Below are positions 36,474-41,569 of a stretch of DNA of 64,000 nt, piece by piece. The notes beneath the pieces were generated by a model that worked only from the letters and a program-made list of their open reading frames with translations, had not been told where the DNA came from and searched no databases. Made by a program: the position numbers and the translations under genes. Source of the DNA: Blastocatellia bacterium (GTDB lineage: Bacteria; Acidobacteriota; Blastocatellia; Pyrinomonadales; Pyrinomonadaceae); assembly GCA_033856735.1 (NCBI GenBank), contig JAWVEM010000025.1:972-64971 (forward strand), in the 5' to 3' direction. The first letter of the stretch is position 1. Every line of letters begins with the position of its first letter.

Positions 36474-36695
36474 ATGTTTGACGATTTGTTTACTGATCTT
36501 GAGAATCAATTGCGATTGTTTGAAACAACAACGTTTTTGCCGATATCCGCGCTGGAAGAGAATTTTTCCCAACTTCAGGATGTCGGCTCGCTTGAAATGG
36601 TTGACGGTTCTCTTGTTGAACTCGCCGCGGATCGCTTCGCATTGCTAAGGGAAGAGGAAATGGCGAAGTTAATCTTTGACGAAACAGCCTTGTAA
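36474..36695 (+). CDS. Possible small acidic protein
   Basis: 73-aa ORF from an internal ATG that fills the gap between the JAB and DUF4407 genes. There is no clear SD. Confidence 0.3.
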   Translation: MFDDLFTDLENQLRLFETTTFLPISALEENFSQLQDVGSLEMVDGSLVELAADRFALLREEEMAKLIFDETAL

Positions 36696-36709
36696 TTCGA
36701 GTCACGAAT

Positions 36710-38089
36710 ATGTTGAAACAATTCCTCATCCTGTGTTCCGGCGCCGAAGCGTCAATATTGAACGATCAGAGATGCGCCTCTGAACGCACCAAGTACGCGG
36801 CTATTGGCGCTACGGTATTGTCAACCGCGGTACTCGCATCGCTTTCCGGCGGCTACGCAATTTACACGACGTTTCGAAACCTTCCAATTGCGATCGGTTT
36901 AGGAATTGTTTGGGCCCTGATAATTTTCAATCTCGATCGCTATATTGTCTCCACCCTGCGAAAGCAGAGGATCGATCCAGTTCTACCCAAAAGAGAACGT
37001 CTGGCTATCAGGGCTCGTGAAATTGGCCGAGCGTTGCCCCGATTTTTGCTCGCAGTGTTCATCGCGGTTGTAATAACTCGACCAATCGAACTCAAGCTCT
37101 TCGAACGCGAGATTAACGCCGCCCTCGAGAATAAGAAGAGCGACATGTTGACCAAAATCGAGCGACAGAAACGACTTGAATTCCCCCAGATTGACGAACT
37201 CGCTTCTCAGAACGACAAACTCCGGAAGGAGATCTCTGACAAGGAGAAGCAACGAGATGACCTTCATGAACTGGCGATGTCGGAAGCGCTCGGAAAATCC
37301 GGAACTCGCACGACCGGCCGTTTCGGGAAGGGAATTGTCTACGAACAGAGGTACCAGGCTTACCTAAAAGGTGAATCTGAACTAGCGGAGTTGCGAAAAC
37401 AGAATCAGGGAAAAATTGCGGCCAACGAAAGATGGATTGCCACACTTGAAAACGACCGCGATAAGAGCACCAAGGAAGCCCGGCGCCAGATTGAAGAAAT
37501 GGGTGGGTTGCTCGCCAGGCTCCAGATCCACAGTGATCTGACGGACCAAAAGGGAAACGGGTCGATTGCGCTGGCGAGCTGGTTCATCATCGGCTTGTTC
37601 ATTCTACTTGAGACCGCGCCAATCATCGTCAAACTCCTGTCGGATCGCGGACCCTATGATGAAATCTGTGAAGCCAGAGAGCATGAAGTCTATGTCAGTG
37701 AAAGAAGGAAGATCTCAGACATCAACGACGATGCAAACACTCGAGTAAGTCTCAAACGTCGTCGGAACGCCGCGATTCTCGAAGCCGAGTCGCGTTTACG
37801 AAAGAGCCTCATTGCGTCGATGGAGACTTTGGCGGGGGAGGAACTGAGAAGAGCGCGGAGTGAAATCGCCGCCACTCTGGTCGAGAACTGGCGCGAGGCT
37901 GAGTTGAGGAACTTTGAATCCAAGTTCCAGGCAGCGCGTCATGCCCAAAATGGAAAAGGAAGCGTCTCTGTTCCTACAGTCGATGCGGCGAAAAAAGCCG
38001 GGATGCCGGATAACGCCAACATCCCAGAAGTTGCTTCACCGTTGGCCGACGCAGCCGAAGATAACCGTACCGAGAGTGTGACTCTGTAG
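36710..38089 (+). CDS. DUF4407-like membrane protein with a long coiled coil
   Basis: CSGAEASILN...ERTKYAAIGATVLSTAVLASLSGGYAIY and IIFNLDRYIV match the remembered DUF4407 signature. It has about 4 TM segments and a charged coiled-coil insert. Confidence 0.65.
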   Translation: MLKQFLILCSGAEASILNDQRCASERTKYAAIGATVLSTAVLASLSGGYAIYTTFRNLPIAIGLGIVWALIIFNLDRYIVSTLRKQRIDPVLPKRERLAIRAREIGRALPRFLLAVFIAVVITRPIELKLFEREINAALENKKSDMLTKIERQKRLEFPQIDELASQNDKLRKEISDKEKQRDDLHELAMSEALGKSGTRTTGRFGKGIVYEQRYQAYLKGESELAELRKQNQGKIAANERWIATLENDRDKSTKEARRQIEEMGGLLARLQIHSDLTDQKGNGSIALASWFIIGLFILLETAPIIVKLLSDRGPYDEICEAREHEVYVSERRKISDINDDANTRVSLKRRRNAAILEAESRLRKSLIASMETLAGEELRRARSEIAATLVENWREAELRNFESKFQAARHAQNGKGSVSVPTVDAAKKAGMPDNANIPEVASPLADAAEDNRTESVTL

Positions 38090-39519: not shown

Positions 39520-40034
39520 GAGTAGGCATAACCGGTCATCAGAAACTTGAGAGCCCCGCCAACTGGGAGTGGGTCCGCAGCGAACTGGACCGGTTTCTTT
39601 CTAGTCTTCCTCAACCTCTGATCGGAATTTCTTCACTTGCCGTTGGAGCCGACCAACTGTTTGCAACAGCGATTTTAGCGCAAGACGGAGCGCTTGAGAT
39701 CGTTGTTCCTTTCGAAGGATACGAGTCGACCTTCTCTGAGGGCGATGATAGACAAGCGTATCTTAATTTGCTTTATCGCGCGTCAAAGGTGGACGTGCTG
39801 AAGCGACACGGAACGGATGAGGAAGCTTACTTTGCGGCTGGAAAGACATTGGTTGACCGATCTGAACGGATCGTTGCTGTATGGGATGGTAAGCCAGCGG
39901 GGGGGCTGGGTGGCACAGGAGACGTAGTTGCTTATGCGCTTGAGCGCACCAAGCCAGTTGTGAATATCAATCCGGTTACGAAGAGAGTACTGAGCGTATG
40001 CAGTCCTCCGATTCTTCCACGAACGCAAAGATAG
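39516..40034 (+). CDS. Standalone SLOG-superfamily (LOG/YpsA/DprA-like) putative nucleotide-ligand-binding protein
   Basis: MRVGITGHQ..., SLAVGADQLFA and VWDGKPAGGLGGTGDVV Rossmannoid Gly-rich motifs. The ATG overlaps the caspase stop (ATGA). Confidence 0.6.
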   Translation: MRVGITGHQKLESPANWEWVRSELDRFLSSLPQPLIGISSLAVGADQLFATAILAQDGALEIVVPFEGYESTFSEGDDRQAYLNLLYRASKVDVLKRHGTDEEAYFAAGKTLVDRSERIVAVWDGKPAGGLGGTGDVVAYALERTKPVVNINPVTKRVLSVCSPPILPRTQR

Positions 40035-41569
40035 AAGCGGTCCTCCGTTTTATCGCGGTTGCGTGGTGCGCCATCTTTATTTTCACTCCGAGTATCTGGT
40101 ACATCATCCTCGTGGCCAGACTGATTCACCCGTCGTTGATCAGCGATGACCCAGGCATAGCACTTGGCAAGGAGGTTCCTTTTCTGGTCCTTGTGGTTGG
40201 AATTGAACTCTTCTATGGCGTCGCGTTCGCACGTTTCCTGCTTCGGCTCATACCGTCTGAACCTTCCAAAGGCGATCGAGGTCGGCATAGCCTAAGGTTA
40301 CTGCTGCTCGGGGGCTCCCTGAGTCCTCTAGTTTTGTTGTTTTTACTCCTTATCCCGTCAGCGAAAATTGCTCTCGCGATCTCTGCGACCTTGTGGCTTG
40401 CATTTGTCCTGGCATCGCTGTTATCTGCGAATAGAAAACTTAAAAGATTGTCACCCGATCGCTTCGTTCTTTTTCTAAGGCGATTCTCAACTTTTTCGGA
40501 GCGGGCAATATTCGGTCTCGTGCTTTCGTCGGTTCCGCGGGACAGACCGCTCATCTTCCTAACCCCCAACCAAAGCCGCCCCAGTGATTGGAACCCATTC
40601 TTGATTAGTTTTGCAGGTCTCAAGCTTGCGCGACCCCTTAGTAATCTCCCCGTAGTATTGCGGGCGCCAGACGCTGACTGGGAGAGACCCGCGAAGTCGT
40701 TGATCGACGATGCACACCGAATCGTGCTTGATATTTCCGCAGGCAGCGCAGCAATCCAAACAGAGATGATGATGATACAGCACGCATCACGATGGCATGA
40801 CACAATCTGCGTGAAAGACCGATCAACTGCCGGCAATCCTGCATTGGATGACTTCATTCTTGCGAAGGATGGGTGGCTGGTTGCATACAAGAAAAATTGG
40901 AGCCAGGTTTTACCGAGATTATTCCTGTTCATATTGTTCTCGGTGATAAGCCTATTTTGGTTGGCTTCGATTGTAACCGAGAGGTCCCATCCTTCTTCCG
41001 AATTTGAAAAGCTACTCGCGACGTTCACGGCCGTTATTTTGTGGGCCGTACCGTTCCTTTCAGGTCTTGGCTTGCTCGTCTATTCGACGTTTATCTACCC
41101 TTCAATAACTGTCTCTGCCAAGCCAGCGATTCGAAGAGCCCTTCGCGGCGTACCTTCAGATGAAAGATTAATCCGCAGCTTTGGGCAGCACCATCAGGAA
41201 TTCGAACGGCTGATCAAGATGTCCCTTGAAGATCTTACTAACGAAGCAGCAACCTCCCTCCGCGTAATCACAGCGGAACCTACTTCAAATAAAGAACAGC
41301 TGATGCTTTCCTCCGAACGGCGCGATCAATATGGAGAGTTATTTAAGTCATTGCGATTAGGTCACGGCATGCGACTTCACTCCACGGATTTCATACTCCT
41401 CGCTTGTCAGAACAATATTGTCGGACGAAGCGGATGCGAGAAAGGGTATGTCTATACAACAAGTCCACTCAAGCCTCTTTACAACTCACTGGACATTCAA
41501 TCAGCTAGAGGAAGATATCTTTATAGGGAACTCAAGCCGAACTGGTACCTTTATCTGTTCGAGAAATGA
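39998..41569 (+). CDS. Polytopic membrane protein, unknown function (candidate effector)
   Basis: 523 aa with several hydrophobic helices at both ends flanking a soluble middle region. It overlaps the SLOG gene by 37 nt. Confidence 0.55.
   Translation: MQSSDSSTNAKIEAVLRFIAVAWCAIFIFTPSIWYIILVARLIHPSLISDDPGIALGKEVPFLVLVVGIELFYGVAFARFLLRLIPSEPSKGDRGRHSLRLLLLGGSLSPLVLLFLLLIPSAKIALAISATLWLAFVLASLLSANRKLKRLSPDRFVLFLRRFSTFSERAIFGLVLSSVPRDRPLIFLTPNQSRPSDWNPFLISFAGLKLARPLSNLPVVLRAPDADWERPAKSLIDDAHRIVLDISAGSAAIQTEMMMIQHASRWHDTICVKDRSTAGNPALDDFILAKDGWLVAYKKNWSQVLPRLFLFILFSVISLFWLASIVTERSHPSSEFEKLLATFTAVILWAVPFLSGLGLLVYSTFIYPSITVSAKPAIRRALRGVPSDERLIRSFGQHHQEFERLIKMSLEDLTNEAATSLRVITAEPTSNKEQLMLSSERRDQYGELFKSLRLGHGMRLHSTDFILLACQNNIVGRSGCEKGYVYTTSPLKPLYNSLDIQSARGRYLYRELKPNWYLYLFEK

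Follow-up and report, generated by a model that had tools for sequence, protein, structure and literature searches.

A predicted type IV Thoeris operon with a coupled standalone SLOG gene in a tRNA-Pro island of a Blastocatellia bacterium

Type IV Thoeris, characterised only recently, connects TIR signalling in bacteria with cell death of the caspase type; it pairs a ThsB TIR protein with the caspase-like protease ThsE (Rousset et al. 2024/2025, bioRxiv 10.1101/2024.10.24.620036). The validated type IV systems consist of two genes and defend without a SLOG protein, and the published work that can be searched treats the type as a two-gene system. PsTIR is a characterised N7-cADPR synthase, PsCaspase is activated directly by TIR metabolites, and the E79Q substitution in a published type IV TIR abolishes defence. 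Two other types do contain SLOG proteins: type I, with its cADPR-type TIR signalling, carries in ThsA a STALD-type SLOG domain fused to a SIR2 effector, and type III comprises several TIRs and a SLOG, ThsD. How Thoeris systems avoid self-activation and how they are reset are open questions.

The TIR-caspase core

The window analysed here is a 64,000-nt stretch of a Blastocatellia bacterium contig. The genes considered first are as follows.

36710..38089, + strand: DUF4407 membrane/coiled-coil protein (Pfam DUF4407, E 8e-79)
38105..38491, + strand: thsB-like gene; its short 128-aa TIR product is the predicted signal synthase (catalytic Glu79)
38512..39519, + strand: thsE-like gene for a caspase-like protease (335 aa), His88/Cys134 dyad, C-terminal domain at about residues 235-335
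39516..40034, + strand: third gene, for a standalone YpsA-clade SLOG protein (172 aa), ATGA overlap with the caspase gene
39998..41569, + strand: polytopic membrane protein (523 aa), internal Rossmann-like domain, 37-nt overlap with the SLOG gene

All five open reading frames described in an earlier, sequence-only reading of this DNA lie on the forward strand as given there, and none of them is judged to be a chance ORF, since each has homologs elsewhere. Its DUF4407, ThsB-like TIR and C14 caspase calls were all matched in Pfam, with PADLOC in agreement on ThsB and the caspase. The 38105-38491 product matched ThsB_TIR (formerly DUF1863; E 5e-10) and the PADLOC model for ThsB (E 5.5e-11). It aligned with PsTIR over the whole domain at 41% identity (E 8e-35), including the catalytic Glu in the WEI motif, and shared 43% identity with the TIR of E. 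coli pCREC-591_1. The conserved catalytic Glu required by the sequence-only reading is present as Glu79 and was invariant across the 14 aligned TIRs, and the suggestion of Thoeris-type TIR signalling held. The product of the window TIR may be N7-cADPR, as predicted from this 41% identical homolog.

The 38512-39519 product matched Peptidase_C14 (E 7.5e-19) and the PADLOC 2023 'caspase' model (E 3e-22), and it aligned end to end with E. coli type IV Thoeris-type caspases at 35% (E 4e-70) and 32% (E 5e-55) identity, the ThsE-type C-terminal domain being included in these alignments. Both dyad residues, H88 (SGHG) and C134 (DCCHSGG), were invariant in 14 caspases, as were F252, LDP261-263, A311, LT319-320, G323, Y326 and L329 in the C-terminal domain, and these C-terminal positions are common to SLOG-linked and SLOG-less operons. 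The window caspase thus keeps the C-terminal domain that is the proposed N7-cADPR sensor of ThsE-type proteases.

The published MacSyFinder rule for type IV calls for a TIR_2 or ThsB_TIR protein at most one gene away from a caspase-like protease; in the window the ThsB_TIR and Peptidase_C14 genes are adjacent, 21 nt apart. Among the comparator operons, L091 has a TIR sharing 78% identity with the E. coli 328 TIR and L093 one sharing 69% with PsTIR, and by these identities both operons are genuine type IV systems. As in type IV Thoeris, a short ThsB-type TIR with its catalytic Glu stands directly upstream of a C14 caspase-like protease that has both the His/Cys dyad and the C-terminal domain of that type. 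We therefore regard the TIR-caspase core as very probably a type IV Thoeris anti-phage operon. Because both proteins are full-length homologs of characterised type IV proteins, the core represents a known system, and the TIR-caspase pairing is not the undescribed architecture it had been taken for. What the window adds to the published two-gene layout is the standalone YpsA-clade SLOG gene coupled to the caspase. A promoter scan returned no more sites than expected by chance.

By homology, the short TIR would use its Glu79 on infection to turn NAD+ into a signal of the cyclic ADP-ribose type, N7-cADPR being the product of the characterised homolog. This signal would activate the ThsE-like protease (His88/Cys134) through its own C-terminal domain, and the protease would then degrade cellular proteins, so that death or arrest of the infected cell would precede phage release.

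The SLOG gene and its predicted fold

For the start of the SLOG gene, the family alignment favours ATG 39516, as in the sequence-only reading, over the upstream GTG 39492 that a 180-aa database protein would imply. Both junctions are as the sequence-only reading described them: read directly from the sequence, the caspase and SLOG genes share an ATGA overlap at 39516-39519, indicating translational coupling, and the SLOG stop codon (40032-40034) lies beyond the ATG of the membrane-protein gene at 39998, giving the 37-nt overlap.

The SLOG call itself was weak by profile. The Pfam YpsA match (E 9e-4, 19.6 bits) fell under the 27.7-bit gathering cutoff of PF06908, and 23 of 42 family members gave weak YpsA matches only (best E 4e-5); since the protein scores below gathering, we file it as YpsA-like but outside PF06908. 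NCBI labels one homolog DUF1273. Sequence searches of the PDB with the protein and with the family profile returned no match, and Pfam gave no SIR2 or STALD match for this single-domain protein of 172 aa. The AF2 model (pLDDT 91) was more informative: its best Foldseek match was YpsA (2NX2, E 1e-9, TM 0.72), followed by DprA, ShosA, the SLOG domain of ThsA (7uxs, E 2e-5), TM1055, MCP and LOG, all members of the SLOG superfamily. Structure prediction thus confirmed the SLOG fold and with it the earlier call.

The family alignment of 42 sequences showed an invariant G44-A45-D46, which corresponds to the GxD signature of the YpsA clade, where GxD/E has been defined as a substrate-binding motif (PMC6459960). 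Many polar residues, including H8, D46, E61 and D136, are likewise invariant, and a TGH motif is invariant among standalone members and missing from a SLATT-fused relative. YpsA and YoqJ (DUF1273), which include the best structural match, resemble the window protein in their GxD/E signature and in a TG(H/Y) motif at the N-terminus, whereas the latter has no gpsB linkage, lies in a defence-operon context and scores below the Pfam YpsA cutoff. Type I Thoeris resembles the window in that its operon encodes a SLOG-fold protein alongside cADPR-type TIR signalling; in contrast to the SIR2-fused STALD-type domain of ThsA, the window SLOG is YpsA-like and standalone, and the effector next to it brings a C-terminal module of its own. 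Apparent SLOG 'fusions' of 214-626 aa in homologous loci proved to be artefacts of ORF over-extension.

Genomic contexts and candidate roles of the SLOG protein

We sampled 83 SLOG loci from many phyla. A caspase gene lay directly upstream (within 3.5 kb) in 59 of the 83, which makes caspase and SLOG the tightest pair, and a TIR of any kind was nearby in 51; most loci encode one to three TIRs. The distance from caspase stop to SLOG start was between -4 and +17 nt in every junction inspected. Conversely, about 16% of plasmid-borne ThsE-type (type IV) caspases carry the SLOG gene. The gene linkage that had been expected across homologous loci was accordingly borne out for TIR, caspase and the standalone SLOG protein, while DUF4407 and the membrane protein dropped out. 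In annotated plasmid records, the Streptomyces copies of the family are orphan genes. The searchable type IV Thoeris papers do not mention the SLOG gene (Burroughs et al. 2015 and van den Berg et al. 2024 were outside this search), and it appears to be a so far undescribed third gene of type IV Thoeris. The E. coli operon Liu-DS6, which comprises Pycsar, type IV Thoeris and a fifth gene of unassigned function, resembles the window in having a small extra gene directly after the caspase; deletion of that gene had no measurable effect in published tests (PMC13069673). It is not a SLOG family member (hhalign probability 0.05%).

The sequence-only reading cast the SLOG protein, like a split ThsA, as the signal sensor that acts in trans on the caspase, the membrane protein or both. 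The tight, translationally coupled caspase-SLOG pair speaks for this, as do at least four clean two-gene caspase-SLOG operons without a nearby TIR (L007, L011, L014, L016), which would fit either a tighter functional link between the two proteins or a signal-generating SLOG. A homologous SLOG domain fused to a SLATT effector and adjoining a TIR, a sensor-effector layout, further indicates that the family can act as a sensor. A caspase tree, built to distinguish a 'plug-in' from a 'co-adapted' model and limited to 14 sequences, placed SLOG-linked and SLOG-less caspases mostly in separate clades, so co-adaptation through direct contact is possible. Against the trans-sensor reading, the caspase of the validated two-gene systems responds directly to TIR metabolites, the same C-terminal domain is kept in the window caspase, and there are also caspase-free contexts in which the partners of the SLOG protein are a TIR and an unrelated 8xMP membrane protein (a literature search on '8xMP' returned nothing relevant). 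The proposed membrane target is missing from all 83 SLOG loci, and its own 81%-identical relative is encoded convergently to the cassette. A SLOG sensor in trans is thus not needed, and we consider this reading unlikely.

A different view makes the SLOG protein an independent second arm, effector or sensor, that arrests growth itself on binding the TIR signal, by likeness to the standalone SLOG of type III Thoeris and to B. subtilis YpsA. Type III Thoeris-like loci encode several TIRs and a standalone 192-aa SLOG (review PMC13276650), and overproduced YpsA blocks division in a manner dependent on ligand-motif residues (PMC6459960). TIR and SLOG occur without a caspase in two contexts (L031, L063), and TIRs 40% identical to the type III TIR-1 adjoin SLOG in 12 loci. 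The resemblance to type III, of which L102 is a multi-TIR example, lies in the small standalone SLOG, whereas in the window operon the effector is a caspase and there is one small TIR only. Relationship to the type III (LD_cluster3) SLOG was rejected at an hhalign probability of 2.5% against the L102 protein. Moreover, a SLOG protein of about 160 aa is a single domain without an evident effector module, and its conserved coupling to a potent caspase effector would make a second effector unnecessary. A second arm is, in our assessment, quite unlikely.

The TIR-less operons are also what one would expect if the SLOG protein were an enzyme that makes the caspase ligand without a TIR, or converts the TIR product. 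SLOG, TIR and DrHyd domains are related in fold, and there are SLOGs that cleave N-glycosidic bonds (PMC9503650); in addition, the invariant polar residues listed above and the loss of the His motif in the sensor-type SLATT fusion would suit catalysis. Yet most loci already have their one to three TIRs, the two-gene systems need no converter, and the distant standalone homologs that phages encode are hard to reconcile with a generator of defence signals. We rate a signal-generating or converting enzyme as decidedly improbable.

The overall explanation that we prefer, with about as much confidence as doubt, is a type IV Thoeris core accompanied by the SLOG protein as a signal-tuning accessory. 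Such a role is more likely than that of a primary trans-sensor because the caspase has retained its C-terminal module, two-gene systems do not need SLOG to function and the gene accompanies only about 16% of the plasmid ThsE-type caspases, and a nucleotide-handling accessory is favoured because the fold is confirmed, the GxD motif is invariant and the linkage to caspase and TIR is strong. We propose that the SLOG protein likely binds the TIR-derived nucleotide; it might also cleave it and in this way tune signalling. Produced at a constant ratio to the toxic protease, it would serve as a buffer, threshold-setter or off-switch and would not be the primary sensor. For YpsA-type SLOGs, sensing of cADPR variants or cleavage of ribosyl-adenine bonds has been predicted (PMC9503650), and together with the phage homologs and a TGH motif that all standalone proteins have but the SLATT-fused relative lacks, this supports turnover or sequestration. 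That the protein acts, on balance, through negative regulation or signal turnover is nevertheless put forward tentatively, with slightly more doubt than belief.

A coupled, phyla-wide third gene with a nucleotide-binding fold suggests an unstudied regulatory layer in type IV Thoeris, and for the questions of self-activation and reset the SLOG protein is a concrete, clonable candidate. If it were an off-switch or threshold-setter, it would be the first built-in one described for Thoeris and an analogue of the ring nucleases of type III CRISPR, small, operon-encoded standalone proteins of sensor-type fold that limit a cyclic-nucleotide alarm signal. Under the preferred accessory model this analogy is functional only, as the folds (CARF versus SLOG) and the signals are unrelated. 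Since the family also occurs with TIR and 8xMP and in SLATT fusions, its ligand specificity could help decode several Thoeris-like systems. A bolder version, which we find somewhat unlikely, takes the SLOG protein as a host-encoded buffer or degrading enzyme for cADPR-type signals, in which case the distant phage homologs would act as anti-Thoeris enzymes, and separately takes the 523-aa membrane protein as a new effector class.

Neighbouring genes and the tRNA-Pro island

The 523-aa protein has about seven predicted TM helices; in its AF2 model, TM helices span residues 6-149 and 301-366 and an alpha/beta domain residues 157-297. Profile and fold searches of the PDB with the protein and with its Rossmann-like domain gave no significant match, and profile comparison ruled out this domain as a SLOG relative. 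It has 33 homologs in all, and in four of seven independent contexts a TIR gene lies within about 3 kb. With its TM helices and internal Rossmann-like domain, the protein might be the first member of a new class of membrane effectors linked to TIRs. Its absence from the 83 SLOG loci, and from the nearest relative as well, leaves the proposal of a SLOG-regulated membrane effector unsupported, and the protein is an island neighbour rather than an obligate cassette component. The same holds for the DUF4407 protein, for which PADLOC, NCBIfam and PHROG returned no match: it adjoins the cassette, in conserved position, only in the closest relative (L001/L002). The idea that the 36.5-41.6 kb block, from DUF4407 through the membrane protein, forms a single five-gene system draws on the shared strand with gaps of at most 21 nt or overlaps, on this conserved DUF4407 position and on the TIR genes near membrane-protein homologs; given the distribution of both flanking genes, it is very improbable.

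The wider region contains the following features.

6341..6388, + strand: attL-like repeat copy (exact direct repeat of 48 bp), 3' half of tRNA-Pro (6309-6385)
6396-7487, - strand: tyrosine integrase beside the attL-like repeat (Phage_integrase, Pfam E 3e-24)
28915..36448, + strand: TIR-1190, small TM protein, ThiF-type E1, putative Ubl, putative E2 and JAB+TM protein
41934..41981, + strand: attR-like copy of the 48-bp repeat, distal island end just downstream of the block

Two observations had been overlooked earlier. First, the gene string of the nearest relative reaches upstream to TIR-1190, E1, Ubl, E2 and JAB: the whole ten-gene string is kept in L001/L002 at 45-85% identity, other loci are without the upstream block, and the Ub-like genes accompany the cassette in its nearest relatives alone. 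Pfam matches in this block were TIR_2, ThiF and Prok-JAB. Second, the whole region is a tRNA-Pro island of about 35.6 kb, integrated at that gene, and the cassette is located at its distal end. The tRNA-Pro was called by both ARAGORN and Rfam, the 48-bp repeat is exact by alignment, and most of the island has a GC content of about 0.50-0.52, compared with 0.55-0.61 for the right-hand flank.

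Genes of the cassette and its type IV Thoeris core

We first confirm the gene structure, since the five open reading frames proposed on the forward strand by the sequence-only reading were all found as described:

36710-38089, +, DUF4407 protein (Pfam DUF4407, E 8e-79)
38105-38491, +, small TIR (Pfam ThsB_TIR, E 5e-10; PADLOC ThsB)
38512-39519, +, caspase (Pfam Peptidase_C14, E 7.5e-19; PADLOC caspase)
39516-40034, +, SLOG protein, 172 aa (Pfam YpsA, sub-threshold, E 9e-4)
39998-41569, +, polytopic membrane protein, 523 aa (open reading frame; structure model)

Both proposed junctions, the ATGA overlap of the caspase and SLOG genes and the 37-nt overlap of the SLOG and membrane protein genes, were read directly from the sequence. 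A database copy of the SLOG protein (P0001, 100% identical) has 180 aa, a length that fits translation from a GTG further upstream, at 39492; in the family alignment the ATG at 39516 (172 aa) is the better-supported start, and it is this ATG that overlaps the caspase stop as ATGA. We count the observation as confirmed and its interpretation, a split Thoeris system of new architecture, as partly supported.

The novelty of the TIR-caspase pairing was not borne out. Using the TIR-domain sequences of characterised systems (Table S1 of Yirmiya et al., 10.64898/2025.12.03.692087), we found the window TIR to be 41% identical to the characterised type IV TIR, PsTIR, over the whole domain (E 8e-35) with the catalytic Glu aligned. 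This residue, whose absence would have counted against the earlier reading, is invariant as Glu79 in 14/14 TIRs drawn from both SLOG-linked and SLOG-less operons. Two comparator operons are, judged by their sequences, genuine type IV Thoeris: the TIR of an E. coli chromosomal operon (L091) shares 78% identity with the validated E. coli 328 TIR, and that of a P. aeruginosa plasmid operon (L093) shares 69% with PsTIR. The window caspase gave full-length alignments with comparator-type caspases (32-35% identity, E 5e-55 to 4e-70), and a 14-sequence alignment showed invariant catalytic H88 and C134 together with C-terminal invariants F252, L261-D262-P263, A311, L319-T320, G323, Y326 and L329. Because of these alignments and invariant catalytic residues, the pair is a type IV Thoeris homolog, and the core of the cassette is an already known system.

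A YpsA-like SLOG protein as conserved third gene

The 172-aa protein scored below the cutoff against Pfam YpsA/SLOG (E 9e-4; 19.6 bits, cutoff 27.7 bits), and neither sequence nor profile searches returned a PDB match. Its alignment-based AF2 model was confident (pLDDT 91, pTM 0.86), with YpsA (2NX2) as the best Foldseek match (E 1e-9, TM 0.72), followed by DprA, ShosA, the ThsA SLOG domain with bound 3'cADPR, and TM1055, and further by MoCo-carrier proteins, LOG and TRPM N-terminal domains. This placement of the predicted fold assigns the protein to the SLOG superfamily. G44-A45-D46, invariant in the family alignment, corresponds to GxD/E, the YpsA-clade signature for substrate binding (PMC6459960); from the fold placement and this motif, therefore, the SLOG call was right. 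The protein is YpsA-like and lies outside Pfam PF06908. Its family comprises 2,179 cluster representatives (E ≤ 0.001) with a typical length of ~161 aa, all of them without a precomputed Pfam annotation.

With each species represented by one genome, a scan gave 385 SLOG relatives; we examined the loci of 80 of them as well as one closer relative in three copies, 83 loci spanning Acidobacteriota, Cyanobacteria, Actinomycetota, Bacteroidota, Proteobacteria, Planctomycetota and other phyla. Open reading frames taken from stop to stop, up to 3.5 kb from the SLOG gene, were searched with profiles and gave these counts:

Table. Genes up to 3.5 kb from SLOG (83 loci)
ThsE-type (type IV Thoeris) caspase: 59/83
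Any TIR: 51/83
Caspase and TIR: 45/83
At least two TIRs: 16/83
TIR without caspase: 6/83
Caspase without detectable TIR: 14/83 (3 on truncated contigs)
Neither: 18/83 (13 of them Streptomyces)

Linkage of TIR, caspase and SLOG thus holds in homologous loci. The caspase gene nearly always lies immediately upstream of the SLOG gene on the same strand, and the distance from caspase stop to SLOG start was -4 to +17 nt in every junction inspected. Rhizobium binae p4 has the order TIR, caspase, 'DUF1273' (the SLOG-like gene), TIR, and B. subtilis pBS72 has TIR, caspase, hypothetical (the SLOG-like gene). Seen from the caspase side, a SLOG gene lay within ~0.5 kb of the caspase in 8 of 50 plasmid records carrying a ThsE-type caspase at E ≤ 1e-20 (~16%), and it is absent from the caspase operons of E. 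coli, P. aeruginosa, Proteus, B. cereus and Enterococcus. The SLOG gene thus marks a minority yet phylogenetically broad variant of type IV Thoeris. A literature search of incomplete coverage found no mention of SLOG, DUF1273 or another third gene in type IV Thoeris; the conserved SLOG gene appears to be a new feature on a known core, with a testable role.

Neither membrane protein proved to be a fixed component. DUF4407, which had no match in defence-system or phage-family libraries, adjoins the cassette in just one relative, the closest (63% SLOG identity); TIR-1190 and the E1, Ubl, E2 and JAB genes likewise recur in that relative alone. The 523-aa protein occurs in 0/83 SLOG loci and is outside the conserved cassette. 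It has only 33 homologs (39998-41569 in the window; other loci include L084, L086 and L097), and a TIR gene lies within ~3 kb in 4/7 independent contexts. In its model (pLDDT 71), two regions of TM helices, 6-149 and 301-366, flank a well-predicted alpha/beta (Rossmann-like) domain, 157-297, the conserved family core; no significant fold or profile match was obtained, and a relationship to SLOG was looked for and not found. It may be a separate, undescribed TIR-linked effector.

Other Thoeris loci offer partial likenesses. The fifth gene of Liu-DS6, a published E. coli operon (PMC13069673), also follows the caspase, but comparison showed it to be unrelated. A type III Thoeris-like locus likewise has a standalone SLOG protein, there of Pfam LD_cluster3, with no detectable relationship to ours. 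In 12 SLOG loci (cluster c5; 10592-11146 in L027, plus 11 loci), TIRs of ~185 aa beside SLOG or shortly before the caspase share 40% identity with the published P. aeruginosa type III TIR-1, a hint that components of types III and IV mix.

Further gene neighbourhoods and possible role of the SLOG family

Beyond the caspase cassette, the family recurs in the following settings:

L028 10001-12339; L066 8981-10474; L101 (Novosphingobium) 3002-4474: caspase-free operon of small TIR, 8xMP (PF24838) membrane protein and SLOG
L063: SLOG gene after a TIR-WD40 gene
L090 (Caballeronia plasmid) 4046-7851: SLOG domain-DUF4231/SLATT fusion (577 aa), then a TIR protein of 539 aa and a WD40 protein
L007, L011 and L016, around 9000-10500; L014, 2148-3670: clean operons of just caspase and SLOG between opposite-strand genes, no TIR within 3.5 kb
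L099, L100 and 13 loci (L052, L062, L070-L072, L074, L075, L078-L083): Streptomyces orphan SLOG genes in variable contexts, with no caspase or TIR nearby
Microbacterium phage Phinky 3522-4019: example of a phage homolog

The TIR-8xMP-SLOG operon, for which a literature search found no description, is a candidate Thoeris-like system. One Streptomyces orphan adjoins a RelE/ParE toxin-antitoxin pair. Distant standalone homologs (26-30% identity) occur in 56 phage genomes (records H78-H102 among the examples), annotated as 'DprA-like' or ssDNA-binding proteins, and might be anti-Thoeris factors.

By homology, the TIR with Glu79 would make a cADPR-type signal; acting on the C-terminal domain of the caspase itself, this signal would activate the protease, whose proteolysis would lead to abortive infection. 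SLOG would then be an accessory that binds or processes the signal, serving as a buffer, threshold-setter or off-switch. We favour this accessory role tentatively, at somewhat below an even chance, because two-gene type IV systems function without SLOG, the caspase keeps its own C-terminal module, the family pairs with unrelated putative effectors and its SLATT fusion is sensor-like, phages encode homologs, a published analysis predicts YpsA-type SLOGs to be sensors of cADPR variants or enzymes that cut ribosyl-adenine bonds (PMC9503650), and translation coupled to a toxic protease suits a dosage-matched regulator. Three rivals stay alive: SLOG as a trans-sensor or activator of the caspase and/or membrane protein, as the sequence-only reading had it; as a signal generator or converter; or as an independent effector. 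They do so because TIR-less caspase-SLOG operons exist, because caspases of SLOG-linked and SLOG-less operons fall mostly in separate clades (14-sequence tree), and because an N-terminal TGH motif is invariant in standalone SLOG proteins and missing from the SLATT-fused relative (L090).

The tRNA-Pro island and its cargo

An exact 48-bp direct repeat (the tRNA-Pro 3' half) was aligned at 6341-6388 and 41934-41981, and a tyrosine integrase adjoins the tRNA-Pro (together 6309-7487). Repeat and integrase define a ~35.6-kb island integrated at tRNA-Pro, with GC below that of the right-hand flank and the Thoeris/SLOG cassette at its distal end. Its other cargo includes:

8764-13502, -, GajB-like UvrD helicase with N-terminal M78/IrrE peptidase domain (1165 aa), adjoining a DUF2130 protein
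15616-21955, second Ub-like element: JAB-ThiF (E1) fusion, 1109-aa HEAT-repeat protein, 201-aa protein
23832-27410, -, CHAT-TPR protein, 1192 aa
28915-36448, all on one strand: TIR-1190 (1190 aa), small TM protein, ThiF-type E1, putative Ubl (103 aa), putative E2 (241 aa), JAB protease with TM helix

The helicase and DUF2130 protein may form another defence module, and the 201-aa protein matches the PADLOC candidate PDC-M35B. The CHAT-TPR protein is 60% identical to one that related Acidobacteriota encode divergently beside caspase-SLOG, at 7 loci (cluster c4; L004, L005, L007, L011, L012, L019, L068). In the window ~9 kb (TIR-1190, Ub-like genes, DUF4407) separates it from the cassette, a gap that points to either an insertion at this site or a deletion in the other loci. 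The putative E2 had no Pfam or PDB match. The 28915-36448 block makes up a set of ubiquitin-like conjugation genes together with a TIR gene, and the closest relative (L001/L002) is the only one in which it accompanies the Thoeris cassette.
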